From Capsulimonadaceae bacterium (GTDB lineage Bacteria > Armatimonadota > Armatimonadia > Armatimonadales > Capsulimonadaceae): 64,000 nt of DNA. Of this stretch, positions 1 to 12,199 are shown piece by piece. Position 1 is the first letter of the stretch; the number at the start of each line of letters is the position of its first letter. The notes under the pieces are model-generated. The model was not told the DNA's origin. It did no database searches and saw only the letters and a list, made by a program, of their open reading frames with translations. Location of the stretch: NCBI GenBank assembly GCA_965215505.1, contig OZ244065.1, positions 4,224,001 to 4,288,000 of the forward strand, read 5' to 3'. The position numbers and the translations under genes are program-made.

Positions 1-2
1 AC

Positions 3-842
3 CCGCAGCGGGACGTACCTGCGATGGTGGCCTGGTCGGCGGGGTGGACGCTGCTGCTGTACGGCCTGCCCATCCTGGCCGTCCTGCTCGTCCTGCCGGC
101 CGGCGAGGTGACGGGCTTGGGCGGGTTCCTGGACGCGGTGAAGGCGGTCTTCACCGTCTACGGCGGGACGGTCGGGGCGGGGGGAGCGGTGACGCTGACG
201 GGGTGGGGGAAGGCGGCGGGCGAGGTCGCCATGCTTGCCTTCCTGCTGGCGACGCTGTCGAGCGGGAGCGCGTGGCTGATGGGAGCGGACCGCATCCTGG
301 CCGTGGCCGCCTATGACGGGGCGGGGCCGCGCGCCCTGGGCCGGTTCTCGGCCCGCTTCGGGACGCCCCTGACGGTCAACCTGATCTCGGGGGCCGTGTC
401 CACGCTGACGATGCTGCTGGCGTTCCGGTTCTCGCACGGCAGCGCGGAGCAGTATTTCTCCGCCGCCATCGCTCTTGCGATCTCGACCGAGACGCTGGCC
501 TACCTCGCCATCTTCCCCGCCTTCCTCCGGCTGCGCTACGTTCAGGGCGGCGCGCGCCGTCCCTACCGCGTGCCGGGCGGCCTGGCGGGTGCCTGGGTCT
601 GCGGCGGGCTGACCACGGCGTGGGCGGGGCTGGCGACGGTCGGCCTGATCTGGCCCGGCTTCGGCATCGGCTGGTTCGGCACGGCAGGCCGGGGGGACGA
701 CGCCCTGCCGGGCGGCTTCGCGCACCAGCGTCTGGCCTACGAGCTGATCCAGAACGTGCCGCTGGGCCTGTTCGTGCTTCTGGGCCTGCTGTTCTACCGG
801 CTGGGCAGGCCGACTCGCGAGGAGGCCGCACCGCCGGCCTAG
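3..842 (+). CDS. APC-family amino acid permease, 5'-truncated at the window edge
   Basis: Multiple TM segments; motifs SGSAWLMGADRIL..A.DG..P..LGRFS.RFGTP and LR..RPYRVPGG typical of APC permeases; frame open to the window start. Confidence 0.85.
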   Translation, partial: PQRDVPAMVAWSAGWTLLLYGLPILAVLLVLPAGEVTGLGGFLDAVKAVFTVYGGTVGAGGAVTLTGWGKAAGEVAMLAFLLATLSSGSAWLMGADRILAVAAYDGAGPRALGRFSARFGTPLTVNLISGAVSTLTMLLAFRFSHGSAEQYFSAAIALAISTETLAYLAIFPAFLRLRYVQGGARRPYRVPGGLAGAWVCGGLTTAWAGLATVGLIWPGFGIGWFGTAGRGDDALPGGFAHQRLAYELIQNVPLGLFVLLGLLFYRLGRPTREEAAPPA

Positions 843-923
843 CCTACCCCTTCAGCACCAATGTCTCTAGAGAGTGCGCCGGGCTGCTGACCTTCACCGC
901 CTTGCGGGAGGCACGGATGGCAA

Positions 924-2030
924 TCAAGGTTTCACGATCCTTCGCAGCAGCGACGCCCAATGGACGCCGTAAAGGGTGAGGAACGTCAGCGCATAGTGCG
1001 CGGCGTTGCCGGCCGTCGGGCGGGGCTGGCCCGGCGTCCACTGTGTCGGGCGTGGGACTTCCGGCGGGTCGAACCGGTCAAAGTAGTGATGGCTGATGAG
1101 CCATTGGCGCGACGGGAAGACGATGCGCCACAGGGCATGGGCGCGGGCCTGGGGGCTTCCGAGCAGGTGCCAGAGCAGCGGGAGACGCAGGCGCTCGGTC
1201 CGGGCGGCGGCGACGTCCTCGATGCTGTCGGCGGCGCGCGCCTCGCTGATCCGCTCCAGGCGAGCGCGCCCGGCGCGTGGCGCGAGCGAATCCAGAACTT
1301 CGAGCGGGACGGGCGTTCCCAACAGCCGCGCCGCCGCGAACAGGGCGGCGAAGCAGGCCGTGGATGCCCCCGCCGATCCGGCGATGCGGACGAACAGCGG
1401 CCAGTCCACTGTGCTGACCGAGCAGACCTGTGCGATGTCGCGCAAGGACTGCGAGGCGGCCAGGGAGTGCCCCGCTAGGTGCAGGCAGAGGTGAAGTATC
1501 TGGTCTTCCGTCCCGAGTACCCGCCCGTCCGTTCCCGCCAGACGCGCCGGCCGGGCGCGGTCCCACAGGCCCGCGTCATCAACGTGGAACTTGCCGAAGA
1601 AGAGGTCGTTATTGATCAGCTCGGTGTGCAGCTCGACCACTATAGGGCCACGCTCCGTGTGGTTGAAAAAGTTGGCCTGACAGTCGCGGCCCCGGATGAC
1701 CTCCTCCCATTGCAGGGGATCAACGACATACCCCAGCGAATCCAGCAGCGTCCGGGCGCGGGCGGCGTCTTCTGGGCGCACCAGCACGTCCAGGTCTCCG
1801 AACCGGCGCAGGCTGGGGCGCGGGTAGACCGTCTCGGCCAGCGCCGCCCCCTTGAGGACGAGCAGGTCCAGTTTTGCCTCGGTGCAGAGACTCAGCAGAG
1901 CGGCCAGGTGCGGGCGGAAGAAAGCGAACTGGACGAGGGCCGCGACTTCCTCCAGCGCCTCTCCTTCGGGGAGGCGCTGGGCGAAGGGAAACTCCGTTCC
2001 TGTTTGGCTTGCATCAAGGGTGAGAAACAT
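924..2030 (-). CDS. Nucleotidyltransferase family protein (NTP_transf_5-like)
   Basis: LKGAALAETVYPRPSLRRFGDLDVLV motif, VELH, and L..EDQILHLCLH...LRDI. Confidence 0.85.
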   Translation of the reverse strand: MFLTLDASQTGTEFPFAQRLPEGEALEEVAALVQFAFFRPHLAALLSLCTEAKLDLLVLKGAALAETVYPRPSLRRFGDLDVLVRPEDAARARTLLDSLGYVVDPLQWEEVIRGRDCQANFFNHTERGPIVVELHTELINNDLFFGKFHVDDAGLWDRARPARLAGTDGRVLGTEDQILHLCLHLAGHSLAASQSLRDIAQVCSVSTVDWPLFVRIAGSAGASTACFAALFAAARLLGTPVPLEVLDSLAPRAGRARLERISEARAADSIEDVAAARTERLRLPLLWHLLGSPQARAHALWRIVFPSRQWLISHHYFDRFDPPEVPRPTQWTPGQPRPTAGNAAHYALTFLTLYGVHWASLLRRIVKP

Positions 2031-2151
2031 AAAAACCCGAGAAGGCCCGCCGACCTTCCCCGAAAGATGAGGAAAGTCGGCAGGCCGCCGATTTGCGCTC
2101 CTTAGGTGAGTGCAAAAGCCTGGTTCCCGCGAACCACTTCAGCCCTGTCCT

Positions 2152-2916
2152 CTACCTGCCGGTCCGATCCACGCATTTGCCGCGCGGGCCTGGGAGGAAG
2201 CCGGCGCAGCAGGGGAGCGAGTTGTTGATGTAATTGTAGGTCTGCCCATGCGCGGCACAGGGGAGGGACACACTCGCCGGACCGACATAGAAATCGTTGC
2301 TGTTGATCCCCGTCGCCGGTGAAGAAGTGCTGCTGATGGTGGCCCGCGTGATTAGGTTGTTCACGTTCGTCTGCGCCCCGACAAAAACTGCGGTCCCGGC
2401 GGATGAGGTGTTGTCCGTCGGCCCGAAGGTGAAACTGCCTAGCGAGGTGTTCCCGTTGAAGACGGTCAGCGTGAAGGTTTCCGTGTCCGCATTGAAGTCC
2501 TGGGCGAATAGCCCGAACCCGGTGACACCGTTCTGGAAGCTGATCTGGAGAGGCCCCGTGGCCGTGGGGCTGACGGAGCCGTTGAAGAGTTCTTCCAACA
2601 CGTTCCCCGACCCGAACTGCGGGCCGACCGTCAAGTCAGAGGTGTAGCTCTGAAACCCGCCGCCCGGTGTACCGTTCGTTGCCGAATAGGTCAGGGTGTT
2701 GGTGCCCGCTGTCACTGTGAACGAGGACGGTCCGCTCGCGCCGCTCCCGGAGGTAGTGGGGTAGGGGGCCGTCTGGACAGGGCTGAACAATTGGCTTGGG
2801 CTGGTCACTATCGTGGCCTGCCCCTGTACCGCACGCCAGCCCAGGGTCGCGAAGGTGCAGAGCGCGAGCGCAGTCCATAAGGAGCTGTTGAGGCGGTTTT
2901 TGTGATGGTTGTTCAT
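2152..2916 (-). CDS. Secreted Ser/Thr-rich protein, paralog of the PEP-CTERM protein at 3877-4719, ending in a Cys-rich tail
   Basis: Signal peptide; shares TGPLQI.F.NGV..FGLF.Q, FVGAQ....NLITR and DFY.GP with 3877-4719; ends CAAHGQTYNY...PCCAGFLPGPRGKCVDRTGR. Confidence 0.85.
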   Translation of the reverse strand: MNNHHKNRLNSSLWTALALCTFATLGWRAVQGQATIVTSPSQLFSPVQTAPYPTTSGSGASGPSSFTVTAGTNTLTYSATNGTPGGGFQSYTSDLTVGPQFGSGNVLEELFNGSVSPTATGPLQISFQNGVTGFGLFAQDFNADTETFTLTVFNGNTSLGSFTFGPTDNTSSAGTAVFVGAQTNVNNLITRATISSTSSPATGINSNDFYVGPASVSLPCAAHGQTYNYINNSLPCCAGFLPGPRGKCVDRTGR

Positions 2917-3242
2917 GGTAATCCTTTCGAGCCAGTGCTGTTGCCTCCACTCAAGCTCCTTCGTCTCGTTTCAGTGCCGGGCTTCCACCCCGCCGTTGTC
3001 TCGCTGCCCAATCAGGACTTCATAACTTTCCTGCCATTGTACCCGATTCGTTCGCGATTTTTCTTTCACTACGCGGCGGACCCAGCCAGACGGAGGAAGA
3101 CTGAATCCGGAGGAAGATTGAGTCAGGAGGAAAACTAAATCAGGAGGAATGCGTCATGCAGGCAGGTGACGGAGTAGTAACCAGAGGCGGCCTGCCGCTT
3201 GCTCCCGGAGGCAGGGCAAATGCAACAGGCCGTCAGAACTTG

Positions 3243-3279
3243 AAAAGCCGGGGCGGCATCCCGTAAAACCGCCCCCGGC
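3243..3279 (-). terminator. Intrinsic terminator after the PqqD/RRE gene
   Basis: Minus strand GCCGGGGGCGG..CCGCCCCGGC hairpin followed by TTTT. Confidence 0.6.
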
Positions 3280-3287
3280 AGATATGC

Positions 3288-3323
3288 CTCGGGAGTATGC
3301 TTACATGGCTCGGGAGTATGCTT
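3288..3323. repeat. 15-bp direct repeat CTCGGGAGTATGCTT x2 (period 21)
   Basis: Copies at 3288-3302 and 3309-3323. Confidence 0.8.
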
Positions 3324-3327
3324 GGGG

Positions 3328-3843
3328 TCAGCGTCCAGTCCGGTCAACACATTTGCCGCGTGGTCCGGGGGAATATCCTGAGCAGCAGGGACGTATGGTG
3401 CCTGTTGCCAGGCCGGTGTAGTCAAAGGTCTGCCCGTGTCCAGCACATCTAGTAGACGCCGCCATCGCGGGCGTCGGGGCGACCATGCTCTGGACCACCG
3501 GCAAGAGGAGGGACACACCGCCGACCAAGGCCGCCTTCTGAAGTACCTGTCTTCGCGTGACTCGTCTGGCCTCTTCCGCTCGTACCAGCGGGATTTGCAG
3601 CAGGTGTTCTTTTCCCAAACGGTCCAGCGCAAGCCAGACCATGTCCTCGGTCACCGGTGTTGCCATCTCGCCTTGCAGGGTTTCCACAAGAGCGGCCACC
3701 GTATGCCGGCCATCGCAGTGACGCCAGACCATCGCAGCGGTCCGGTTCAGACGGTGAACATGGTCACGCTGCTCATCATAAATGATGGTTTCATCACCGA
3801 TCTCCTGGACGACAAGGCGGTCCGCTCGTGCTTGTGGTTTCAT
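3328..3843 (-). CDS. PqqD/RRE-domain protein fused to a Tat-like leader and Cys-rich C-terminal peptide
   Basis: N-terminal ~90 aa PqqD-like (QEIGDETIIYD..HRLNRTAAMVWRHCDG); then TRRQVL..hydrophobic..APTPAMAAS; then CAGHGQTFDY...PCCSGYSPGPRGKCVDRTGR. Confidence 0.85.
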   Translation of the reverse strand: MKPQARADRLVVQEIGDETIIYDEQRDHVHRLNRTAAMVWRHCDGRHTVAALVETLQGEMATPVTEDMVWLALDRLGKEHLLQIPLVRAEEARRVTRRQVLQKAALVGGVSLLLPVVQSMVAPTPAMAASTRCAGHGQTFDYTGLATGTIRPCCSGYSPGPRGKCVDRTGR

Positions 3844-3876
3844 TGCTTTCCTATCTCAGCACTTTCCAAATGTCGG

Positions 3877-4719
3877 CTAGCCGGCGGCCTTCTGCGCGGA
3901 CTGTCGGCCGGCGTTCACCTTACGCCGGCGCGCGGAAAGGACGACGCCGGCGAACAGCAGCGTTCCCATGCCGAAGCCCACGACGGTCGAAGCCTCCGGG
4001 ACTGGAGCCGTGAACTGGTAGCTGATGGGGCCGAAGTAGAAGTCGCCTGTCGCGGTGGTGTTGGACATGTCCGTCAGGACGACCCTGGTGATCAGGTTCC
4101 CCGCCAGGGCTTGGGCGCCGACGAACGTCGCGTTGCCCCCTTGAGTCGGCCCGGAACCGGACGTGTTGAGTACGTCCAGAGTAGAGAAACTGCCGAGTGG
4201 GATGGTGCCGTTGGGGCCGCCAAAGACGGAAAAGTTGAAGTGGTATGTGTCTGTACCAGCGGACTGTCCGAAAAGGCCGAATTCATTGACGCCATTGCTG
4301 AAGTCAATCTGGAGAGGCCCAGTCGGAGGCGCGGTCGCTTTAGACGTGTTAAAGTCGAAGGTTTCGATCAGATGTGTCGCGTAAGGAAAAGCATTCGTGT
4401 CGAGCGCCGGCAGGTTCGTGATCGGGTTGGGTTGGTTGACGAAGGTGTCGAAGGCGGTGGCACTCGCCGGCTCAGTCTGCGATGTGAACGTCACCCCCGT
4501 TCCGGGAGAATTCAGCAAGTAGCCAGAAGGGAGCGTCCCGTTGGTGGTGTCAAACTGCGGCGTCATGCTCGCCCCCGGCCCCAGCTGGGATGGCATCGTG
4601 AGCTGGGTCGCCAGTTGTGCCTGGGCCGCCCGTCCGCCTAGGGCTGTGAGGGCGCAGAGCGTGACGGCGGCGGCGAGTTGCTTGCTGTGATCGTATTTGT
4701 GCATGGTAGTTTCTTTCAA
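3877..4719 (-). CDS. PEP-CTERM sorting domain surface protein
   Basis: Signal peptide; C-terminus PVPEASTVVGFG + TM helix + RRRK; alternative start at 4704. Confidence 0.9.
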   Translation of the reverse strand: MKETTMHKYDHSKQLAAAVTLCALTALGGRAAQAQLATQLTMPSQLGPGASMTPQFDTTNGTLPSGYLLNSPGTGVTFTSQTEPASATAFDTFVNQPNPITNLPALDTNAFPYATHLIETFDFNTSKATAPPTGPLQIDFSNGVNEFGLFGQSAGTDTYHFNFSVFGGPNGTIPLGSFSTLDVLNTSGSGPTQGGNATFVGAQALAGNLITRVVLTDMSNTTATGDFYFGPISYQFTAPVPEASTVVGFGMGTLLFAGVVLSARRRKVNAGRQSAQKAAG

Positions 4720-4901
4720 AAGTCTTTATGGTCTACGCCCACGCCTCCAGGGGCGCGAGTGGCTGCGGGTAAACCCATGCACCATCGGCTGCACGGGTGA
4801 GAAAACGGGCAGCGCCCGAAAACTGTTATCGCTTGGGAAGCCTTCTTCACAGGTTTCGTTGCGCGGCGTCGCGGGATGTCCCCGAACGTGGGCAAAATTC
4901 T

Positions 4902-5828
4902 TTAGCGCTCTGGCCCGTCCCCGCCGGCCTCTTCCCCACATAAGCGTTCCCGCAGCCAGGCGACAACCCGGTCGGCCTCGCCCCGCTTGCTCTGGAACGC
5001 CTCGGCACCGAGGGCCGCTCTCTGAAGAATCTGCATCGCCGCCTGCGGCTGCCGGCGGACCTGGACGGTGTTGTCCAGCAGTGTCAGCATCGCCCGGCCC
5101 GGCGATTGGGGCCGGGGCCGCCAGCGCGCGCCCGCCTCGTACCGGGCCGCGAGGATCATCCCGACCGGCAGCGGCCCGGTCGCGGCCCGCCCGCCCAATG
5201 CCTCGACGGGGACCGTCTCGCCCGGCCCGCCTTCCGCGTCCCGGAGTGACAGGGGCCGGGCGTAAGGGTGGACATGGCCGCCCTCGTCGAAGACCGCATA
5301 CTCGTCGGAGAAGTATGTCGCCCCCGCCGCCGCCAGGGCCGCCACCAGGCTACTCTTCCCGCTGAAGGTACGCCCCGGAATGACCACGGCTTTCCCGCCC
5401 CACCCGACGACGCCGGCGTGGACGAAGAGACGGTCCCGCGCCTGCTCCGCCACCTGCCCGTGCAGGCCGGAGGTCAGCGCCTGGATGGCCTCGTCCGCCC
5501 TGCGCGTGTGCGCCACCCGGCAGGTCCCCCGGTACAAAAAATAGTGCGGCTCGGGATGCGCCCGCGACCGGCTCTCCACCACGGCCAGCGAGAACAGGCC
5601 GTCCACGGTCGGTGTGGGGGCAGGCTCCGCGCCGGGCGGCAGGTGATCCGTCAGACGATCGAGCAGCGCGGCGTCCGTGGCGCGGACGCCGATCCGGGCA
5701 CCGTGACTGACGAAGGCCAGCCCGGCCGCCCAGCGGAACCTCTCCAGAGCCTTCCAGCAGGGGGAGGAAGCGTCGGGCGGCTGTTCCAGCGTCGGCAGCC
5801 GCGCCCCATCTCTTTGCTCGACCGTCAC
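4902..5828 (-). CDS. HprK-related P-loop kinase
   Basis: FVHAGVV...IPGRTFSGKSSL (Walker A) and YFSDEYAV, the HPr-kinase-like pattern; GTG start. Confidence 0.8.
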   Translation of the reverse strand: MTVEQRDGARLPTLEQPPDASSPCWKALERFRWAAGLAFVSHGARIGVRATDAALLDRLTDHLPPGAEPAPTPTVDGLFSLAVVESRSRAHPEPHYFLYRGTCRVAHTRRADEAIQALTSGLHGQVAEQARDRLFVHAGVVGWGGKAVVIPGRTFSGKSSLVAALAAAGATYFSDEYAVFDEGGHVHPYARPLSLRDAEGGPGETVPVEALGGRAATGPLPVGMILAARYEAGARWRPRPQSPGRAMLTLLDNTVQVRRQPQAAMQILQRAALGAEAFQSKRGEADRVVAWLRERLCGEEAGGDGPER

Positions 5829-6132
5829 GGACTTCTTTATCCCCGCATCTTACCCATTCCGACGGTGCGTTTTCCGCAAGGCGCGCTACAGTTCCGAACG
5901 CCACTCGCCCCGATGCCGCGAGTGCAGGCACAGAGGGTAAGGCTCCGGAAGGCGCGTCCGGCGATGGGTTTCCTTTACTCTTCACTGCACAAAGAATGCC
6001 AAAGTGAGGGAAACAGGCTAATCGGGAGAGTTTTCTTAGAAATATTTTTTCGTCCCCGATGAACGTCCCCTTTGGGCGAGGCGAAGGTAAATGGTCGCCG
6101 GTCTGGCAGCGGATTAGGTATACTGATTTGAT

Positions 6133-7944
6133 ATGCCTAGACAGCCTTATCCCCACACGCGAACACCCACGGAGGCCCGGCGAACTGGGCAGCGGCGACG
6201 CTCGGCGGGCGGAGGGTCCTCTGCGGGGAGCTGGCTCGCCGATCATGCCCTCCTCGTCTGCCTCTCCGGCCTCCTCGTCCTCGCCTTCCTGGCCGAGATG
6301 CCCTGGCTGTCCCGGCCCCTGCGGTCCCACCTGCTGCAAGCTGCCGTTGTCCTGATCTATACCCTGATCGCCGCCGCAGGCCCCGCCTCGGGCCGGGTGA
6401 CCCGTGACTCCCTGCGCGGCCCCTCCCTCTGGCTGCTCGGGCTGCTGGCCTGGAGCGGCCTGAGCGCCGCCCTCGCGCCGTACCCCGCCTTTGCCGCCTC
6501 CGAGCTGCTGCGGCTCGCCCTGGGCGCGGGCGTCTACTTCGTGGCGGCCCACGTCCTGCGGCCCCACGAGGCGCGGCTCCTCCCCCTCTTCCTGCTCGGC
6601 CTGGGCGCGGCCGTCGGCCTGTACGGCCTGATTGAATTCGGGGCGGAAGGCAACTTCGGCACCGGGGCGATCCACAGCGTCTTCGGCAACCACGAGCAGC
6701 TCGGATCGTTCCTCGTCCTCCTGCTGCCGCTCGGGCTGGCGCTCGCCCTGGACCGCAGCGAGGGGTTAAAGAAGCGCCTGCTGTTCGCGCAGGGCGCGGC
6801 CCTGGTCATCGGCGCGGCCCTGCTGCTGGCGCGCACCCGCTCCGCCTGGCTCGGGGCGACGGCCGGGCTTGTCCTGCTGGCCTTCCTGACATTGCGCTAT
6901 TCGTCCATCCGGCTGACCCGCAGCAACCGCGCCCTCGTCATCGGCCCGGCGCTGATTCTGGTGCTGGCCTTCACGGGCCTGCTCGTCTTCGGCGAACTCG
7001 CCCCGCTCGTCTCGCACCGGGCAGCGACCCTGGCGCACGCGGGCGATGACACTTCCCTCGCCGACCGCCTGCACCGCTGGCGGTCGGCCTGCCGGATGGC
7101 CTCCGAAAAGCCGGTCACCGGCTGGGGCCTGGGCGCGTGGCCGGTCATGCAGGGGCGCTGGACGCACCAGGGCGACGACGTCAGCGAGGTGCTGGGGGCG
7201 GGTACGGGCCATTCCAACCTCGCCCACAACTTCTGGGCGCAGTGGGCCGCCGAGACGGGCGGGGTCGGCCTGGCCCTCCATCTCGGCGTCCTGGCCGCTT
7301 TCCTGCTGGCGGGCCTGCGCGCGCTGCCCCGACTGGACCGGGAGCGGCGGACTTTGCTCCTAGGCTGCCTCGCCGCCGCCGCAGCGGGCGGCGTGGACAT
7401 GGCCGGTGCCCCCTCCTACACCTTCCCCGGCGTCTCCTCCCTGTTCTGGGTCACGCTGGGCCTGGGCGTCGCCCTGCTGCCCGGACCCGGCGGGGCGCGG
7501 GCGACGCGCCGTTTCGACTGGCTGATTCCCCTGAGCGCTGGACTCGCCGCCGCCCTGGCCGTTGTGGGCATCGGCGACAGGCTCCGCGCGGACGGGCGGG
7601 CGGCCCCGCGCGGGACCCTGACCGTGACCGCCCAGCCGCCCGGCCCGGTCGCGCCCGGAACGCGTGTCCTGTGGACCGCCACCTACCATGCCCCCGACGG
7701 CACGGCCCGCCCGACCGCGCCAGGCACCGTCTGGAAGGTCACGGAAGGCGGCCTGACGAAGACCAGCCCGACCTTCCTGTTCCTGAACCGGGAACCCCAG
7801 CGCTCCGGCTGGCAGGGCAACATCGCCCCCGGTGTGAGCCGGGTGACAGTAACGGCGTACTACTGGGACCAGTTCAGCCGCCCCTACCAAGTTTCTTTGC
7901 CTGTGGCCGTCAAAACTGTCAAAAACCCTGTTGCAAATCCGTAA
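6133..7944 (+). CDS. O-antigen ligase/Wzy_C family membrane protein with C-terminal beta-rich extracytoplasmic domain
   Basis: Many TM helices; FGNHEQLG, TRSAWLG, R...W....M....P..GWGLG, AHNFW motifs. Confidence 0.85.
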   Translation: MPRQPYPHTRTPTEARRTGQRRRSAGGGSSAGSWLADHALLVCLSGLLVLAFLAEMPWLSRPLRSHLLQAAVVLIYTLIAAAGPASGRVTRDSLRGPSLWLLGLLAWSGLSAALAPYPAFAASELLRLALGAGVYFVAAHVLRPHEARLLPLFLLGLGAAVGLYGLIEFGAEGNFGTGAIHSVFGNHEQLGSFLVLLLPLGLALALDRSEGLKKRLLFAQGAALVIGAALLLARTRSAWLGATAGLVLLAFLTLRYSSIRLTRSNRALVIGPALILVLAFTGLLVFGELAPLVSHRAATLAHAGDDTSLADRLHRWRSACRMASEKPVTGWGLGAWPVMQGRWTHQGDDVSEVLGAGTGHSNLAHNFWAQWAAETGGVGLALHLGVLAAFLLAGLRALPRLDRERRTLLLGCLAAAAAGGVDMAGAPSYTFPGVSSLFWVTLGLGVALLPGPGGARATRRFDWLIPLSAGLAAALAVVGIGDRLRADGRAAPRGTLTVTAQPPGPVAPGTRVLWTATYHAPDGTARPTAPGTVWKVTEGGLTKTSPTFLFLNREPQRSGWQGNIAPGVSRVTVTAYYWDQFSRPYQVSLPVAVKTVKNPVANP

Positions 7945-7958
7945 GAATCGTGTATAAT
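7931..7958 (+). promoter_or_regulatory. Sigma70-type promoter for 8040-8507
   Basis: TTGCAA-N16-TATAAT. Confidence 0.6.
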
Positions 7959-8039
7959 ACGCATACCTGCTAGTCGTATCGGCATGGACGCATCGGGGAG
8001 ATCGCATCTTCCCCTGTTTCGACGGCCACGAGGCAAATC

Positions 8040-8507
8040 ATGACGCTTTCACAAAGACTCACACGCGCCGGGCTGGTCTTCATCCTGCTGGGTTCCGTCG
8101 CCGCCGCTCTGCCACAGCAGAATGGCGCTGCGTCCGCTGACCCAAACGGCTGCTTCACGGGTACGCCAGGCCGCTTTGCCATCTCTAACAGCGCACCTGC
8201 AACTGATTCAACGACTGTTACCGCCAATTACACAGTGTCCACACAAGGCACCACATTCAATTTCTATTTCTCCCCTGACTCTACCAGCGCCTATAGCTCG
8301 GTGACACCGACCACTAGCTCGATTGTTGTGAACACTGGCTCACTCATCATCAATGGTGCAACAGTGGCAGCAACCGGCTCAGTCAGTAACAGTTCTGCTT
8401 CGGAGAACATAGCGCAGAATGGAGCAAACACCGGAAGTTCGACCTTCACGAGTAGCTACACAAGTGGCAGTAACACTTATAAGGCCTCGATCACGGTCGG
8501 TGCGTAG
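8040..8507 (+). CDS. Small secreted Ser/Thr-rich hypothetical protein
   Basis: Signal peptide; beta-strand-like S/T-rich mature part; lower GC than neighbours; own promoter and terminator. Confidence 0.75.
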   Translation: MTLSQRLTRAGLVFILLGSVAAALPQQNGAASADPNGCFTGTPGRFAISNSAPATDSTTVTANYTVSTQGTTFNFYFSPDSTSAYSSVTPTTSSIVVNTGSLIINGATVAATGSVSNSSASENIAQNGANTGSSTFTSSYTSGSNTYKASITVGA

Positions 8508-8541
8508 GTGTTGTTCCTCTAAACATTTGCCAACTACGATG

Positions 8542-8574
8542 CAGCCTTCGGTCATAAAGGCCGAAGGCTGTTTT
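8542..8574 (+). terminator. Intrinsic terminator
   Basis: CAGCCTTCGG-loop-CCGAAGGCTG-TTTT. Confidence 0.8.
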
Positions 8575-8661
8575 GACATCAGATGCCTCAATGCCATCCC
8601 CCGTTTCCTTTCCCCAATTCTAGAGGACTAGGAAGCCGTTTCTCCTTCTTCCCCGGCCTGA

Positions 8662-9879
8662 CTACCCCAACAGATACTCATAAATGCCTTCCAGTTTGCG
8701 GGCCGTCTGCGCCAGCGTGAACCGCTCCCGCACGCGCTCCCGCCCCGCCGCACCCATCGCCGCCGCGCGGGCCGGGTCGGACAGCAGGGCCGCCATCGCC
8801 TCCGCCATCGCGGGGGCGTCCCCCATCGGCACCAGCAGGCCGGTCACGCCGGGGATCACGATCTCCGGCAGCGCACCGCCGTTAGTGGCGATGATCGGCT
8901 TCCCCGCCGCCATCCCCTCGACGACCACCTGCCCGAACGGCTCCCCCAAGGTACTGGCGTGGACCACGAGGTCCACCCCGGCCAGCAGTGCAGGCACGTC
9001 CTCCCGGAACCCCAGAAACTCGACCCGGTCCCCCATCTCTAGGTCGCGGGCCATCCGGTGCAGGGACCGCTCGTACTCGTGTTCGCCGAACAGGGGTGCC
9101 CCGATGATCTGGAACCGGGCCTGCGGGAACCGGTCCTGGAGCAGGGCGGCGGCCTGAAGGAAAACGTGCTGCCCCTTCCACCCGGCGATGCGCCCGACCA
9201 GGGCGACGGTCTGCGGGCGGCCCTGGGCGGACGCCGGTTCGGCGGGCGGAACGCGCTCGTCCAACTGCTCGCCGCCCACGCCGCTGTAGACCACCGGCAC
9301 CGAGTCGGCGTGGGTCGGCCGCAGGTGCCGCCGCGTGTTCTCAGAATTGGCGATCACCTGACGCGGGAGGATCTTGATGAGGATGCGGAAGAGCGTGGTC
9401 AGGGAGCCGGGCAGATAGCCGTCCCCGATGATGTCCCGGACGTGCCAGAGTACCGGGATGTGCGCGAGACGGCCCGCAAGCCCCCCGTACACGTCCGCCT
9501 TGAGAGAGTTCGTGTGGATCAGGTCAACCCCATGCCGACGCGCGAACCGAGCCAGGCGCACCGCGTAAGCGATGCAGAGGCCGGCCTGCCGCAGCCTGAA
9601 TAGGGACTGGAACCCCAGGCTGTCTTTGCGCGCCTCGACGATGGACCTGTCCAGCGGCAGCACATGGGTCTCTACCCCGGCCCCCCGCAGCTTCTCGGCG
9701 AGCGGTCCCGCCGAGGCCAGGGCGACGATGGGTGTGAAGCGCGACCGGTCGAGCGCGCCGATGAGGCCGAGCAGGGCGATTTCGCCGCCACCCATTTTCG
9801 CTGTGTGGTCCAGAAAAAGGATGGTCTTGGTTCCCGGTACAGATTGGAATATCACTCGCCCATTTGACTTCCCGCTCAC
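8662..9879 (-). CDS. GT4 glycosyltransferase
   Basis: GGGEIAL, VGRIAGWKG, EPFGQVVVEGMAAG. Confidence 0.9.
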   Translation of the reverse strand: MSGKSNGRVIFQSVPGTKTILFLDHTAKMGGGEIALLGLIGALDRSRFTPIVALASAGPLAEKLRGAGVETHVLPLDRSIVEARKDSLGFQSLFRLRQAGLCIAYAVRLARFARRHGVDLIHTNSLKADVYGGLAGRLAHIPVLWHVRDIIGDGYLPGSLTTLFRILIKILPRQVIANSENTRRHLRPTHADSVPVVYSGVGGEQLDERVPPAEPASAQGRPQTVALVGRIAGWKGQHVFLQAAALLQDRFPQARFQIIGAPLFGEHEYERSLHRMARDLEMGDRVEFLGFREDVPALLAGVDLVVHASTLGEPFGQVVVEGMAAGKPIIATNGGALPEIVIPGVTGLLVPMGDAPAMAEAMAALLSDPARAAAMGAAGRERVRERFTLAQTARKLEGIYEYLLG

Positions 9880-11063
9880 CGTCGGAGCCTGCCCTGGTGG
9901 ACGGCCTCGTAGACGGCCAGCGTCTGTTCGGCCGTCCGCTCCCAGGAGAACTCGGCGGCGCGCGCCAGCCCTTTCTCCCGGAGGGAGTGGCGCAGCGCCG
10001 ACGACTCCGCGACCTCGCCGAGCGCCCGAGTCACGGTTCCGGTCTCCTCGGCGGATACCAGGCGGCCGGCGGATCCGGCGACCTCGGGCAGTGCGGAGGC
10101 GTTATTGATGATGACGGGGACGCCGCAGGCCATCGCCTGGAGGGGCGGCAGCCCGAACCCTTCGTAGGCGCTGAGGTAGACGAACGCCAGCGCGGCGTTG
10201 TACCACCAGACGACCTCCTCGCGCGGGATAAAACCCGGAAAGAGGACGTGTTCCCGCAGGCCCAGGCTCTGGACCTGATCGAAAATCCCCTGGTACATCC
10301 ACCCCTTCGGGCCGGCCAAGATCAGCTTCGGCACCCCCGCCATGGCCCCGCGTCCGTGCAGGGCGGCATAGGCCCGCAGGAGGTGCGGGATGTTCTTGCG
10401 CGGCTCCAGTGTACCCAGGTACAAAAAATACCGCTCCGGCAGGCCGCGCCGCGCCCGGAAAGCTTCCACGGCGCGCTCCCCGTCCGACGTCCCCCCGAGC
10501 CACCGATACTCCCTGTCGGCGGCCAGCGGCACCGTGACCACCCGCGCCGGGTCGGCCCCGAGCAGCCGGATCACGTCCTGACGGGTGTTCTCCGACACCG
10601 CCAGGATGGCGTCGGCGGACCGGACCGAGAGCCGGGTCATCAGCCGCAGGTACTCGCGCTTTGCGGGCAGGTGGCGGTCCCGGAAGAGCAGGAAGGCCAG
10701 GTCGTGGATGGTGACGATGCGCGGCCGGCGGGCCAGCAGGGGGATGACGTTGACCGGGCTGTGGATCACGTCCATCTTCCGGGTCGCCAGCGCGTGGGTC
10801 GTCTGCTCCCACAGGAACCGGGTCGGGGGGTAATGAGTCGGCGCGAGCGTCGTGGCCAGGCGGAAGTTGGGGCTGAGGGCCAGCCGCTGCCGCGCCTCGG
10901 GGTCACGCGCCCAGGCCCCGGTGTAGACCGTATAGCAGTTGGACTGATCCACCTGGCCCAGCCCGTGCAGCAGGTGGGAGATGTAGTTGGAAAGCCCGGT
11001 CGCCCGGTAAGTGTCGCCGTGATTGAGCAGAGAAGCGTTGATGGCGATGTTCACCGTTTGCAC
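9876..11063 (-). CDS. GT4 glycosyltransferase
   Basis: VTIHDL, LGTLEPRKN, YEGFGLPPLQAMACG. Confidence 0.9.
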   Translation of the reverse strand: MQTVNIAINASLLNHGDTYRATGLSNYISHLLHGLGQVDQSNCYTVYTGAWARDPEARQRLALSPNFRLATTLAPTHYPPTRFLWEQTTHALATRKMDVIHSPVNVIPLLARRPRIVTIHDLAFLLFRDRHLPAKREYLRLMTRLSVRSADAILAVSENTRQDVIRLLGADPARVVTVPLAADREYRWLGGTSDGERAVEAFRARRGLPERYFLYLGTLEPRKNIPHLLRAYAALHGRGAMAGVPKLILAGPKGWMYQGIFDQVQSLGLREHVLFPGFIPREEVVWWYNAALAFVYLSAYEGFGLPPLQAMACGVPVIINNASALPEVAGSAGRLVSAEETGTVTRALGEVAESSALRHSLREKGLARAAEFSWERTAEQTLAVYEAVHQGRLRR

Positions 11064-12199
11064 CCTCCCGCCAAGGGCACCGCCGACTGCTCACATAATC
11101 CCCCATAGAGCGTGTGCATCTGATCCGCGACCTTCTGCCAACTGTACAGGCCGCTCGCGCGCGCCTGCCCGAGTCGCCCGTACTCCGCCCGCCGCTCCGG
11201 GTGATCCAGCAGCGTCCGGAGCCGGCCCGCCAGGGCGGCGGCGTCCCCCTCCGGGAACGTCAGCCCCGCCCCCCCAATGACCTCGGGGATGGCACCCGAG
11301 TCCGAGCCGACGACCGGCAGGCCGCACGCACCCGCTTCGATCAGGACCCTGCCGAACTGCTCTTTCCAGGTGACATGGGTGCGTGAGGGGAGGACAAGGG
11401 TGTCCATGGCGTTCATGTGCGCGGGGAGGTCGGTGAGGGGGACGGGGCCGGCGAAGTGGACGCGGGGGGCGACTTTCAGGGAGCGGGCGAGGGCTTCGAG
11501 GGCGGGGCGGAAGGGGCCTTCGCCGACGAGGAGGAGGCGGGCCTGGGGGGGGAGAAGGGCCAGGGCGTTGAGGAGGTCGGCCAGCCCTTTTTCGGGGACG
11601 AGGCGGCCGACGTAGCCGATGACGAAGCCGTCGTGGGGGACGGGGCGGGGGCGGAAGAGGGCGCAGTCTACGGCGTTGGGGACGATTTCGGCGGGGCCTT
11701 TGTAGCCTTTCCGGCGGGCGACGGCGAGGGCCTCGGTGCTGCGGGCGACGAGGAAGTCCGCGCGGCGGAGGGTGTAGTCCTGGAACAGACGGAAGGGGGG
11801 CGGGAGGCGCTTGTAGATGTTCTGCTCGGTCTCGATGAGGATCCTCGCGCGCGGGCAGAACCGCCGGGTCAGGCGGACGGCCTGGGCGCAGGTCAGGCCC
11901 CACGGCTCCTCCCAGATGTCCACGATGTCGGGCTGGGTTTCGCGCAGGAGGCGGGGCAGGGCATCGGTATAGTGCTGCAAGTACCACTGGTTCAGGATGC
12001 TGCGCCAGCGGGTGCGGCCGACGACGTAGCGGAAGTCCGGGTCCTCCGGCGTCTCGGCGGCCTGCCACTGGCCGTAGGTCCGCATGCGGTCGGGGACAAG
12101 CACGGTCAGGTCGAGGCCGGGGAAGGCGGCCAGGCAGTGCGCTTTGGGCTGCCCTGCGGTCCGCGACATGCAGGTGTGGGAGACGAGGAGGACTTTCAC
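11051..12199 (-). CDS. GT4 glycosyltransferase
   Basis: VGRLVPEKG, WKEQFGRVLIEAGACG. Confidence 0.9.
   Translation of the reverse strand: MKVLLVSHTCMSRTAGQPKAHCLAAFPGLDLTVLVPDRMRTYGQWQAAETPEDPDFRYVVGRTRWRSILNQWYLQHYTDALPRLLRETQPDIVDIWEEPWGLTCAQAVRLTRRFCPRARILIETEQNIYKRLPPPFRLFQDYTLRRADFLVARSTEALAVARRKGYKGPAEIVPNAVDCALFRPRPVPHDGFVIGYVGRLVPEKGLADLLNALALLPPQARLLLVGEGPFRPALEALARSLKVAPRVHFAGPVPLTDLPAHMNAMDTLVLPSRTHVTWKEQFGRVLIEAGACGLPVVGSDSGAIPEVIGGAGLTFPEGDAAALAGRLRTLLDHPERRAEYGRLGQARASGLYSWQKVADQMHTLYGGLCEQSAVPLAGGCKR

Follow-up and report, generated by a model that had tools for sequence, protein, structure and literature searches.

RiPP recognition elements (RREs) have been described either as separate proteins or within enzymes. 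Twin-arginine (Tat) signals carry an [ST]RRxFLK-like motif, a moderately hydrophobic h-region and an AxA site, and the proofreading chaperones of the TorD, DmsD and NapD class are cytoplasmic proteins that bind such signals. The closest described system to the protein family reported here is that of the linear polyphosphorylated peptide (LPP) clusters of Bacillota (Popov et al., Nat Commun 2026, PMC13381572). According to the available sections of that report, the LPP core set consists of an HprK-like kinase, an RRE and an uncharacterised NTP-transferase, and each cluster has one to three precursors with conserved leaders and variable C-termini. The leader carries a YxxPxV motif, its residues -12 to -7 dock onto the RRE as a strand, and the kinase phosphorylates core Ser3, which lies at +15 from the RRE-bound Pro. 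The leader is removed by a signal-peptidase-I-type enzyme (SipW-like), and the clusters lie in polysaccharide loci. The same sections call LPPs restricted to Bacillota.

Related chemistry is known from phosphorylated and phosphoglycosylated lasso peptides (paeninodin, pseudomycoidin). As given in the available part of PMC8498205, an HPr-kinase homologue phosphorylates a precursor Ser, which is the C-terminal residue, and a nucleotidyltransferase puts a hexose on the Ser phosphate. Protein-like RiPP leaders of the nitrile-hydratase-like and Nif11 types join a long folded leader to a short variable core, with many precursor copies per enzyme set and with leaders bound by the enzymes (PMC12537861, available in part). 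Searches of the open literature turned up neither a report of an RRE joined to its own precursor nor one of a comparable Tat-type RiPP leader, and the RRE-Finder paper has no passage on a kinase, HPr, a signal peptide or a nucleotidyltransferase.

Here, we analysed a 171-aa protein encoded by an ATG-started ORF at positions 3328..3843 on the minus strand of the window (the whole stretch of 64,000 nucleotides that was studied). Its three-part anatomy, with an RRE, an internal Tat-type signal and a four-Cys tail, is confirmed. We propose that the fusion may be a self-contained precursor, from which a ribosomally made peptide is tailored by enzymes and exported, and a diderm relative of the Bacillota LPPs, a reading whose chances we put slightly above even.

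Architecture and distribution of the fusion family

The N-terminal part (residues 1-92; 3568..3843, minus strand) is a PqqD-type RRE. PF05402 (PqqD) matches residues 18-63 with 38.3 bits against a Pfam cut-off of 23.4 (E 1.8e-9), and AlphaFold2 predicts a winged helix with a three-stranded sheet (strands 10-15, 18-23 and 28-32; helices 34-41, 49-59 and 66-78; pLDDT about 95). In Foldseek, where no row for the fusion protein reached E<=0.001, the top rows for the RRE were TbiB1 5v1v (E 1.8e-3, target TM 0.74), LynD/TruD and TfuB1 6jx3; the closest structures are the lasso B1 RREs (TbiB1, TfuB1), and B1 proteins have been solved with leaders. L32 and N33 of the RRE are invariant in alignment A1. 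The RRE is followed by the internal twin-arginine-type signal or leader (residues 93-128; 3460..3567, minus strand), recognised by a near-match to TIGR01409 and by column conservation, and by the predicted released core (residues 129-171 and the stop codon; 3328..3459, minus strand), which holds S130 and four Cys and is marked by hypervariability and by even Cys counts among relatives.

At E<=1e-3, 6162 representative homologues of the fusion protein were found, and 185 homologues are of near-equal length; the carriers belong to Armatimonadota, Acidobacteriota, Gemmatimonadota, Planctomycetota and other phyla. A strict regular expression for the motif fits 207 of 267 fetched relatives, and 58 of the 60 outside it keep the RR, the hydrophobic stretch and a variant site. 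The RR in all 207 motif-bearing relatives follows from the construction of the search, whereas the R97 count given below comes from an independent alignment of 102 sequences (A3), which is the basis of all column counts. Judged by this conservation, the RR-hydrophobic-AxA pattern is far beyond chance and defines a large conserved family. RRE and precursor form a single chain in 102/102 aligned members. Copies lying as orphans were seen in five genomes, with 1-6 per genome and with the kinase elsewhere in four of the five, a pattern that resembles that of precursors. Among ORFs of 30-93 aa, no candidate for a stand-alone leader-core peptide was found, which is weak evidence because the search depends on shared 5-residue words.

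A hidden internal start, which would make the leader an ordinary N-terminal signal, was considered and dropped as a general reading. The position two before the RR is I in 26, V in 24, Y in 11 and L in 9 of 102 members and is Val in the window protein, and the domains are never split by a stop.

The internal leader and its possible functions

The leader is composed of T96-R97-R98-Q-V-L-Q-K, a hydrophobic stretch (104-117), L112-x-x-P115-x-V117 and the c-region A122-P-T-P-A126-M-A128, which together follow the pattern of an [ST]-R-R-x-F-L-K-like motif, an h-region and a small-x-small c-region. The original prediction had placed a PqqD fold and then an RR motif, a hydrophobic stretch and an AxA site about 95 residues into the protein; the string that it quoted corresponds to residues 93-130, and this order of elements recurs family-wide. 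It had also named lack of RR conservation in homologues as grounds for its own refutation; in A3, R97 is present in 102/102, R98 in 100/102 and [ST]96 in 97/102 members, so that this check does not refute it. The conserved pair is R97-R98 (TRRQ), not R93-R94, with R at position 94 in only 29/102. P115 is kept in 100/102, Val or Ile two residues on in 98/102 and P123 in 98/102, and the first position of the xxPxV motif is L in 51, V in 26 and A in 13 of the 102 members.

At the small-x-small site, A126 is found in 89/102 and A128 in 96/102, with a variable position 127. From the family consensus A126-M127-A128, the cut is predicted after A128, which gives a core of A129-R171; the AxA region of the original prediction therefore holds, but its exact cut after A129 does not, the cut probably lying one residue earlier. 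The Ser/Thr that it had marked just after the AxA site is position 130 (+2 of the cut), which is S/T in 94/102 members of A3 and in 193 of the 207 motif-bearing relatives. Pro115 and Ser130 are 15 residues apart in 69 of the 72 A3 sequences in which both can be located, and this is the spacing of the LPP phospho-Ser. The segment behind the site, which had been taken for a core, is hypervariable in the manner of a RiPP core (mean pairwise identity in A3 0.17, compared with 0.46 for the leader and 0.47 for the RRE).

By its sequence, the hydrophobic stretch could equally be a transmembrane anchor. Its best 19-residue Kyte-Doolittle mean is 1.89 in the window protein and 1.85 as the family mean, it is long enough for a helix, and AlphaFold predicts helices over the RR/hydrophobic region at 97-107 in the window protein and at 104-118 in a second member. 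The fusion would then be an uncleaved bitopic inner-membrane protein with a cytoplasmic RRE, a signal anchor at about 104-121 whose RR serves as positive-inside charge, and a periplasmic disulfide tail; the task of the RRE would be to bring kinase and transferase to the membrane, or to bind another peptide in trans, and the tail would tether or sense something in the matrix. No dedicated peptidase is conserved nearby in 78 loci, and the tail also ends a larger secreted protein, as a binding module would, both of which agree with an anchor. However, an anchor has no need of the strictly kept small residues at -3 and -1 with a free -2, which are the signature of signal peptidase I, and the Pro residues conserved in the family at -6 and -4 of the predicted cut also speak against it. 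The same is true of the lipobox-like L-x-G-C that replaces the small-x-small site in three members, of the 7-8-residue tails beside YcaO, which make little sense as periplasmic domains, and of the multiple hypervariable copies per genome. We regard a permanent anchor as unlikely, and a cleaved precursor is the reading that we prefer.

Several features suggest that this precursor may use the Tat route. TIGR01409 (TAT_signal_seq, NCBIfam) aligns to window residues 95-122 with 16.5 bits, just below its cut-off of 16.7, and the Tat signal of NosZ (5i5i) shows a weak alignment to the leader (E 0.2). TatC is encoded in the same genome (181 bits), which shows only that a Tat route exists, and S26 signal peptidases are present there, far from the locus. 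The RR at 97-98 lies behind a folded domain, away from the N-terminal placement of a Tat signal, and to our knowledge no cleaved substrate has been described whose Tat signal follows such a domain at a depth of about 95 residues.

The precursor might instead leave by another way, with the leader acting as a Sec/YidC-type signal, or merely as an RRE/kinase-binding leader that is cut by a signal-peptidase-like enzyme and followed by other export. The TIGR01409 score below the cut-off in the window, with matches in only 48/102 members even at E<=0.1 (best 3e-5), would fit this, as would the delivery of the same tail by the RR-less signal of the adjoining 254-aa protein. As described in the available sections on LPPs (PMC13381572), their leader, although no export signal, is cleaved by a signal-peptidase-I homologue, and the product leaves through an ABC pump. 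On the other side, R97 stands in 102/102 sequences of the independent alignment, the full [ST]-R-R-x-hydrophobic-hydrophobic-[RK] consensus ([ST]RR in 198/207 motif-bearing relatives; R/K at the last position, RR+4, in 180/207) exceeds the positive-inside rule, and an ABC pump or SipW-like gene is recurrent in none of the 78 loci. In addition, Tat can handle a peptide that was tailored in the cytoplasm before export, which is not easily done by Sec. Export by a non-Tat route is thus distinctly unlikely in our estimate, and from the sequence we infer Tat export, signal-peptidase cleavage and phosphorylation of Ser130.

Gene neighbourhood, proposed leader docking and the Cys-rich tail

All genes of the run lie on the minus strand. 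The first encodes an HprK-like P-loop kinase of 308 aa (4902..5828; TIGR04352 HprK_rel_A 72.4 bits, cut-off 200), and the last a PF14907 (NTP_transf_5) nucleotidyltransferase (924..2030; Pfam 132.8 bits). Between kinase and fusion lies the gene of a 280-aa secreted protein with a PEP-CTERM-like C-terminus (3877..4719), to which PF07589 matches weakly at residues 239-266 (16.5 bits versus a cut-off of 20.7). The kinase and nucleotidyltransferase invoked in the original prediction proved to be conserved neighbours. Of the 70 loci with enough flank, 51 have a kinase homologue upstream in the same orientation (the other 19 are without an adjoining kinase). By tblastn, a transferase homologue is placed downstream, again on the fusion strand, in 37/71 loci, and among the 63 loci in which both flanks are available, 32 have the two partners; the gene cluster that includes the PF14907 transferase is found in 59/78 loci. 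A PEP-CTERM-like neighbour occurs in 16/78 loci and has the same position in Armatimonadota loci, and besides it no further sense-strand gene cluster is found in more than 12 of the 78. In two loci (L036 and L063), a YcaO enzyme directly follows the fusion gene, and the tail in L063 has eight residues, Cys included.

Neither a SipW-type peptidase nor an MsbA-like ABC exporter was found among the window genes or as a recurrent cluster in the 78 loci. No Pfam match to a lasso macrolactam cyclase or B2 protease was obtained in eight window proteins or in 92 proteins from 16 related loci. When the kinase was compared with the PDB by sequence, only P-loop GTPase noise was returned (E>0.1). The promoter/terminator scan gave one promoter-like and four terminator-like sites, with no excess over shuffles, and Rfam gave no match in window positions 1-12000.

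Binding of the leader by its own RRE, the mechanism put forward in the original prediction, was assessed with structure models. AlphaFold2 predicts a strand at 117-121 directly after P115 in the window protein (pTM 0.72, pLDDT 88.5), and in a Pyrinomonadaceae member of 44% identity the model has one at 122-125, following P120 (pTM 0.72, pLDDT 87.6); that the RRE sheet would be the partner of strand 117-121 is deduced from the predicted secondary structure. In the complex test, residues 1-92 against 93-171 scored 0.35 (0.35, 0.34, 0.36), which is graded weak, with the best of three controls at 0.00; the runs share at least 78% of contacts, and the partner pLDDT is at least 53. The mark of this test is reached by 58/80 solved complexes and 2/110 mismatched pairs, and at a score of 0.60 or below by only 7 of the 80 solved complexes plus both passing mismatches, counts that hold only roughly here because our own alignment was supplied. 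The pass may also reflect memory, because RRE-leader complexes are already solved. Secondary structure and the weak complex score thus point weakly to binding in cis.

RREs usually act in trans, and this weak score would also suit an RRE that works on the PEP-CTERM or the 254-aa neighbour, the fusion being a membrane-tethered adaptor with an unrelated tail role. Throughout the window's lineage, the gene of a PEP-CTERM-type protein separates kinase and fusion gene. However, such a neighbour is limited to 16/78 loci, whereas the kinase-fusion pair spans several phyla; the xxPxV motif and the Pro+15 Ser lie inside the fusion protein and are conserved family-wide, and by eye no xxPxV-type motif was seen in the two neighbouring proteins. 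We therefore hold action on a neighbour to be highly improbable and keep to the cis-bound precursor.

For such a precursor, the following course can be proposed. The N-terminal PqqD/RRE would bind in cis the L-x-x-P-x-V motif and the next strand (residues 112-121) of its own leader, and docking would present the junction to the adjoining HprK-like kinase, by which Ser130 would be phosphorylated at Pro115+15, as in LppA. The PF14907 transferase may then attach a further group to the phosphate. The leader would serve also as a twin-arginine-type signal, and the modified C-terminal part would be exported, probably by Tat. Housekeeping signal peptidase I would cut after A126-M-A128, leaving the RRE and the signal at the inner membrane, and the freed 43-residue peptide would form two disulfides outside the cytoplasm. 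Since the leader segment cannot occupy the RRE and the translocase together, a release step must be assumed. The fused RRE could even be a built-in export checkpoint, which holds the hydrophobic stretch and the c-region of its own signal as a β-strand, and the precursor in the cytoplasm, until Ser130 has been modified by the kinase (and the transferase), and then permits exit by Tat, but we consider this extension rather doubtful.

The Cys residues of the window tail are C133, C153, C154 and C165. The tails of the 207 relatives are 7-221 residues long; 178 of them have an even number of Cys, 9 an odd number and 20 none. The window tail is modelled by AlphaFold2 with pLDDT 79-94. With four Cys (C, CC, C), it differs from a knottin (six Cys, C-C-CC-C-C); six-Cys C-C-CC-C-C tails occur in Pyrinomonadaceae members, and the only knottin-like structural hint is a weak Foldseek row for protoxin-1 2m9l (E 0.98). 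With the tail (129-171) as the sole query, no match beyond the closest orthologue, P0001, was obtained.

A second carrier of the tail, missed in the original prediction, adjoins the fusion gene. It is a 254-aa protein (2152..2916, minus strand) with a Sec signal without RR and is a paralogue of the protein at 3877..4719 (38% identity to the 280-aa protein, E 1e-23). Where its paralogue has the PEP-CTERM end, it ends in a fusion-type Cys-rich tail (about window 2155-2274) with 63% identity to fusion residues 128-171 (E 4e-11). A recent duplication was rejected as the origin of this common tail; synonymous differences are many (72% column identity), and the similarity does not go beyond the stop codon. 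We favour the view, judging from the two sequences, that the common tail is an old, selected module. Because it stands on a Sec-type protein, the tail would reach the periplasm without need of RRE or kinase and can work without the RRE. For the window's lineage, the exopolysaccharide/PEP-CTERM matrix is the probable place of action of the peptide; this tail also stands on the Sec-secreted paralogue of the adjoining PEP-CTERM protein.

Comparison with known systems and significance

A precursor that brings its own recognition element would call for other ways of mining such pathways, since tools that seek precursors among short ORFs would pass it over, and it could serve peptide engineering as a compact, portable tag. 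On the rather doubtful checkpoint reading, the fusion would also be the first natural RiPP precursor with a recognition element of its own, and the 6162 representative clusters at E<=1e-3 would make up a very large and undescribed class of mini-proteins in soil diderm phyla that are secreted, phospho-tailored and rich in disulfides. For the protein-export field, a twin-arginine signal that is internal and cleavable and follows a folded domain would be of interest. In addition, thousands of variable Cys-rich tails, some of them knottin-like and often near exopolysaccharide genes, may be an untapped source of small secreted bacterial proteins.

Among Tat chaperones, the likeness is that a cytoplasmic domain is proposed to hold the signal until maturation is complete. 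In contrast to them, the fusion signal is internal (about 95 residues in), and the putative chaperone is covalently attached and has a winged-helix fold. Nitrile-hydratase-like and Nif11 leaders, in the part of the source available, resemble the fusion in the long folded part before a variable core and in the many copies per enzyme set, and differ in that they are no RRE themselves and are without an export signal. Phosphorylated lasso peptides share the kinase and nucleotidyltransferase pair, and the nearest RRE structures are of B1 type; unlike what the available part of their description gives, the fusion loci are without the cyclase and B2 protease, and tails end in Ser in only 10/207 relatives. 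The HPr-rel-A system (TIGR04352, HprK-related kinase A; TIGR04353, PqqD peptide chaperone) has the same kinase and RRE families, and a transferase follows, whereas its PqqD protein is free-standing and the window kinase and RRE fall below both curated cut-offs. At E<=0.1, TIGR04353 matches 69/102 family members and gives no row for the window RRE. We fetched 12 TIGR04353 loci, with four above the cut-off among 121 genomes. L085, a bona fide split locus, has upstream a small ORF whose leader is of the form RR-hydrophobic-xxPxM; with a crude filter, a small upstream RR-leader ORF was seen in 2 of the 12 (L085 and L095), which is suggestive only.

The likeness to LPPs, as far as the available sections of that report go, is the closest. 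The kinase (4902..5828), the RRE fusion (3328..3843) and the transferase (924..2030) are encoded together, a conserved leader precedes a variable C-terminus, xxPxV is followed by a predicted strand, a Pro+15 Ser lies just past the predicted cut, and the loci are polysaccharide-related. Leader removal by a signal-peptidase-I-type activity is a further point in common, predicted in the fusion family from its cut-site consensus. By the same sections, the differences are also clear. The RRE is fused to the precursor N-terminus here, whereas in LPPs it is the discrete protein LppB; the motif opens with Leu/Val/Ala instead of the Tyr/Trp on which binding by LppB and lasso RREs depends; and the fusion leader has the twin-arginine consensus and a hydrophobic region. 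LPPs use a dedicated SipW-like peptidase and an MsbA-like ABC exporter, neither of which is in the fusion loci, and the fusion cores are mostly Cys-rich and their hosts are diderm phyla instead of Bacillota. A general export signal in place of the dedicated peptidase and pump suggests an exit route for diderm hosts, and the kinase/RRE/transferase peptide class would be extended from Bacillota to several diderm phyla. Taken together, the fusion family looks like an undescribed, self-contained version of the LPP-type enzyme-modified peptides.

Anatomy and conservation of the fusion family

The gene at 3328-3843 (-) is an ATG-started ORF of 171 codons, with an AGGAAAG stretch a few bases 5' of its start. 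Its product matches the Pfam PqqD model at residues 18-63 (38.3 bits against a cut-off of 23.4), and the NCBIfam twin-arginine signal model at residues 95-122 reaches 16.5 bits, just below its cut-off of 16.7. The leader string quoted in the original prediction occupies residues 93-130, and 41 residues with four Cys lie beyond it; thus, the predicted arrangement of an RRE, a Tat-like leader and a tail in one protein is real and was correctly placed. Loss of the arginine motif from homologs had been named as contrary to the prediction, and using a 102-sequence alignment of the family (A3), we found that the motif is kept, with R97 in 102 of 102 sequences and R98 in 100. The Tat-like motif therefore stands, with the correction that the conserved pair is R97-R98 and not R93-R94. 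It is preceded by Ser/Thr at 96 (97 sequences) and followed by hydrophobic residues at 100 and 101 and by Arg/Lys at 102 (83), and farther along the leader P115 (100), V/I117 (98), S/T119 (101) and P123 (98) are kept. Around the processing site, A126 (89), A128 (96) and S/T130 (94) are conserved and position 127 is free (M 45, Q 24, A 10, others); these columns place the consensus site at A126-M-A128, one residue earlier than the proposed cut after A129. Averaged over 1500 random pairs, the mean pairwise identity in A3 is 0.47 for residues 1-92, 0.46 for residues 93-128 and 0.17 for residues 129-171.

The leader and site together fit a strict expression in 207 of 267 fetched relatives. Within these 207, Ser/Thr precedes the arginine pair in 198, Arg/Lys lies four residues past it in 180, and Ser/Thr occupies +2 in 193; their tails are 7-221 residues long (quartiles 36, 37 and 47), and 178 of them have an even number of Cys and 9 an odd number, whilst 20 have none. 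Among the 60 relatives outside the expression, 58 keep the arginine pair, the hydrophobic run and a variant site. In three of the 60 (P0159, P0180 and P0255), a lipobox-like L-x-G-C (L-x-G-C-D-S) directly before the usual APTP stretch replaces the usual site, which suggests lipoprotein-type processing of the same leader. At E<=0.1, 48 of the 102 A3 members are detected by the Tat signal model, the best of them at 3e-5, and 7 by the formate-dehydrogenase Tat model; family profile positions 98-140 align weakly to the nitrous-oxide reductase N-terminal signal (E 0.2). Six-Cys tails of the pattern C-C-CC-C-C, 27-32 residues long and resembling inhibitor cystine knots, occur in Pyrinomonadaceae and Blastocatellia members (loci L026, L032, L039, L041, L050, L055, L060, L066, L073 and others), several of whose genomes encode 3-6 different fusion copies.

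A scan of one genome per species gave 353 relatives among 487 pattern hits, and 78 loci were retained. In a word-indexed protein search, 185 of 353 candidate proteins matched at E<=1e-3, and nearly all of the best 120 of these 185 are 160-180 aa long with approximately full coverage and a PqqD domain. With HMMER, 1.84 billion representatives were scanned exhaustively. The scan returned 6162 proteins at E<=1e-3, of which 3267 pass 1e-10 and 46 pass 1e-30; they are 105 to 470 aa long, and the alignments mostly span query residues 1 to about 131. In the genome scan, the closest relatives are in Armatimonadota (57-67% identity), and others are in Gemmatimonadota, Acidobacteriota (many Pyrinomonadaceae, Blastocatellia), Methylomirabilota/Rokubacteria, Binatia, Nitrospinota, two proteobacterial MAGs and one cultured planctomycete. 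At E<=1e-15, the family was present in 16 of 151 sampled genomes of the window's phylum. Among the 16 are all 5 remaining genomes of the window's genus, and 3 of the 39 families are represented. The window's own genome holds a single copy.

Gene context and the shared tail

In gene order, the run on the minus strand begins with the HprK-like kinase at 4902-5828 (-; TIGR04352 at 72 bits, under the cut-off), followed by a 280-aa protein with a PEP-CTERM-like end at 3877-4719 (-), the fusion gene, a 254-aa secreted protein at 2152-2916 (-) and, last, the PF14907 nucleotidyltransferase at 924-2030 (-). On the other side of this run lie a Wzy_C/O-antigen-ligase-like membrane protein of 603 aa at 6133-7944 (+), with approximately 200 C-terminal residues beyond the Pfam match, and three ORFs named glycosyltransferase-sized by their length. 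The Wzy-type protein also matches weakly the exosortase-associated O-glycosylation ligase model TIGR03097 (45.5 bits against a cut-off of 188). Between it and the three ORFs, 8040-8507 (+) encodes a 155-aa protein rich in Ser, Thr and Asn; its N-terminus has a signal-like segment, and neither Pfam nor NCBIfam gave a match.

Using the window proteins as tblastn queries, we found that 51 of 70 loci with sufficient flank have a kinase upstream, on the same strand and no more than 2.5 kb away, and that 37 of 71 have a transferase within 5 kb downstream; 32 of 63 have both. When 2380 ORFs from the 78 loci were clustered all against all, the fusion appeared in 77 loci and the kinase in 55; a cluster of proteins of about 367 aa that includes the transferase covered 59 loci, the PEP-CTERM-like protein was present in 16, and no peptidase or transporter recurred. 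The remaining large clusters overlie fusion-locus genes on the opposite strand and are taken to be shadow ORFs of GC-rich DNA. Pfam scans of 92 neighbor proteins from 16 loci gave the same partners in otherwise unrelated surroundings. In a Longimicrobiales genome, for example, rpoC and the rpsL-rpsG-fusA-tuf operon flank the kinase-fusion-transferase module (L024, 5018-7464). Where the fetched copy lacked an adjoining kinase (five genomes), 1-6 fusion copies were present per genome, and four of the five encode the kinase elsewhere; the fifth is an incomplete 2.1-Mb assembly. In two loci, L036 and L063, a YcaO with an N-terminal winged helix directly follows the fusion gene, and in L063, from the cultured planctomycete, the tail past the A-x-A site is only eight residues long and has Cys. 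Variable tails, several copies per genome on one enzyme set and a second RiPP enzyme nearby together argue for precursor-peptide behavior. Both loci (L063, 4956-11403; L036, 4994-11202) are hybrids with the kinase, fusion, YcaO and PF14907 transferase in order, and their tails are very short (L063) or Ser/Gly/Cys-rich; L063 also has a ThiF-family gene upstream. L085 (1042-2629, +) is a bona fide HPr-rel-A locus, in which TIGR04353 reaches 66 bits. Its free-standing PqqD, kinase and transferase genes are directly preceded by a small ORF that encodes RR, a short hydrophobic run and xxPxM, and this ORF and the free PqqD are likely a split counterpart of the fusion.

The 254-aa protein is a paralog of the PEP-CTERM-like protein (38% identity, E 1e-23), and instead of a PEP-CTERM signal, its C-terminus carries a tail homologous to the fusion core (about 2155-2274, -; 63% identity over fusion residues 128-171, E 4e-11). 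The two tail-coding stretches have many synonymous differences, and their similarity stops at the stop codons. An equivalent pair is present in L003 (partner at 6778-7545), where both tails have a different common ending; thus, the two tails track each other within a genome. This makes the tail a functional module, able to get to the periplasm on a Sec-type protein in the absence of an RRE, and it probably acts in an exopolysaccharide/PEP-CTERM context in the window's lineage. Three exosortase genes are found elsewhere in the window's genome, and one in the related locus L005. The original prediction, which read the tail as a core released on export, missed this second tail, and any claim that the tail needs the RRE is weakened by it; kinase action on the fusion protein is neither proven nor excluded by the shared tail.

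Predicted structure and a possible mechanism

The AlphaFold2 model built on A3 (mean pLDDT 88.5, pTM 0.72) folds residues 10-78 into a three-stranded sheet with three helices; beyond these, it places a helix at 97-107, a strand at 117-121 and, in the tail, short strands. A 44%-identical Pyrinomonadaceae member (L039; pLDDT 87.6, pTM 0.72) was modeled with helices across the arginine pair and hydrophobic region, and its conserved P120 is immediately followed by a strand at 122-125. In a Foldseek PDB search, no row reached E<=0.001, and the top rows included lasso-peptide B1 proteins whose solved structures contain the leader (TbiB1, 5v1v, E 1.8e-3, TM 0.74 on target; TfuB1, 6jx3) and the LynD/TruD RRE. 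From the strand length and the solved RRE-leader complexes, we infer that strand 117-121 pairs with RRE strand 28-32. Co-folding of the halves split at 92/93 weakly supports binding: the score was 0.35 (0.35, 0.34, 0.36), and the best of three controls scored 0.00. In the calibration, the mark was reached by 58 of the 80 solved complexes and by 2 of the 110 mismatches, and passing scores of 0.60 or below came from only 7 of the 80 and from both passing mismatches. The runs, for which a custom alignment was used, agreed in at least 78% of contacts with a partner pLDDT of at least 53. Since RRE-leader complexes are already solved, this pass may reflect mere likeness.

Beyond the anatomy, conservation and gene context observed here, we lean slightly towards a mechanism in which the RRE would hold its own leader, the kinase would phosphorylate Ser130 and the transferase would perhaps extend the phosphate. 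The leader would afterwards serve as a Tat-type signal, a housekeeping signal peptidase would cleave past A128, and the 43-residue core would form two disulfides outside the cytoplasm. TatC and several S26 peptidases are encoded elsewhere in the 6.18-Mb genome, and a cleaved product outside the cytoplasm is suggested by the even number of Cys and by the conserved small residues on either side of a free -2 position. Tailoring ahead of export would be a reason to use a Tat rather than a Sec signal. Because one leader segment could not occupy the RRE and the translocase simultaneously, a release step would be needed. From this follows a bolder reading, in which the RRE would hold back export until modification is complete. 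At the level of sequence analysis, the original interpretation is largely upheld.

Comparison with linear polyphosphorylated peptides

The nearest published system is that of the linear polyphosphorylated peptides (LPPs), described in 2026 for Bacillota, to which LPPs are stated to be restricted (PMC13381572). LPP clusters lie within capsular polysaccharide loci, and their core comprises an HprK-like kinase, a discrete RRE and an uncharacterized NTP-transferase, together with a signal peptidase I of the SipW type and a pump resembling MsbA (PMC13381572). One to three precursors are encoded per cluster; they are 35-200 aa long, conserved at the N-terminus and variable at the C-terminus, and carry the leader motif YxxPxVLxHQxIxFETxxS (PMC13381572). 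In crystal structures, Tyr-16 and Pro-13 sit in RRE pockets, residues -12 to -7 extend the RRE sheet, and the kink at Pro is fixed by Asn at RRE position 33 (PMC13381572). Core Ser3 receives several phosphates from the kinase; cleavage by the peptidase falls after Thr-1, depends on the RRE and is poor on unphosphorylated precursor, and the transferase was inactive in a heterologous host (PMC13381572). In pseudomycoidin, a related transferase adds hexoses to phospho-Ser (PMC8498205, a lasso-peptide review). Set beside the LPPs, the fusion family is alike in several features. First, it has an invariant Pro (P115, 100 of 102) with a hydrophobic residue two positions on, and the predicted strand covers exactly the residues next after Pro. 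Second, where the third RRE strand ends, L32-N33 is invariant, matching the LPP Asn 33. Third, Ser/Thr lies at Pro+15 in 69 of 72 sequences with both located, and LPP Pro-13 to Ser+3 is also 15 steps.

In contrast, the RRE belongs to the precursor chain in the fusion family and is a discrete protein in LPP, the motif begins with Leu/Val/Ala rather than Tyr, and the leader carries a full twin-arginine consensus and hydrophobic region. In addition, no dedicated peptidase or pump was found in the fusion loci, whereas LPP has both. A term search of the LPP paper found no occurrence of twin-arginine, Acidobacteri- or Armatimonad-, and in the best 12 of 23 passages with 'fused' or 'fusion' the words refer to laboratory constructs (PMC13381572). 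In the literature searched, we found no description of a variant with a cis-fused RRE and a Tat leader. The fusion system is best filed with the kinase/RRE/transferase peptide systems that were described in 2026, as a new variant with a cis-fused RRE, a Tat-type leader and diderm hosts.
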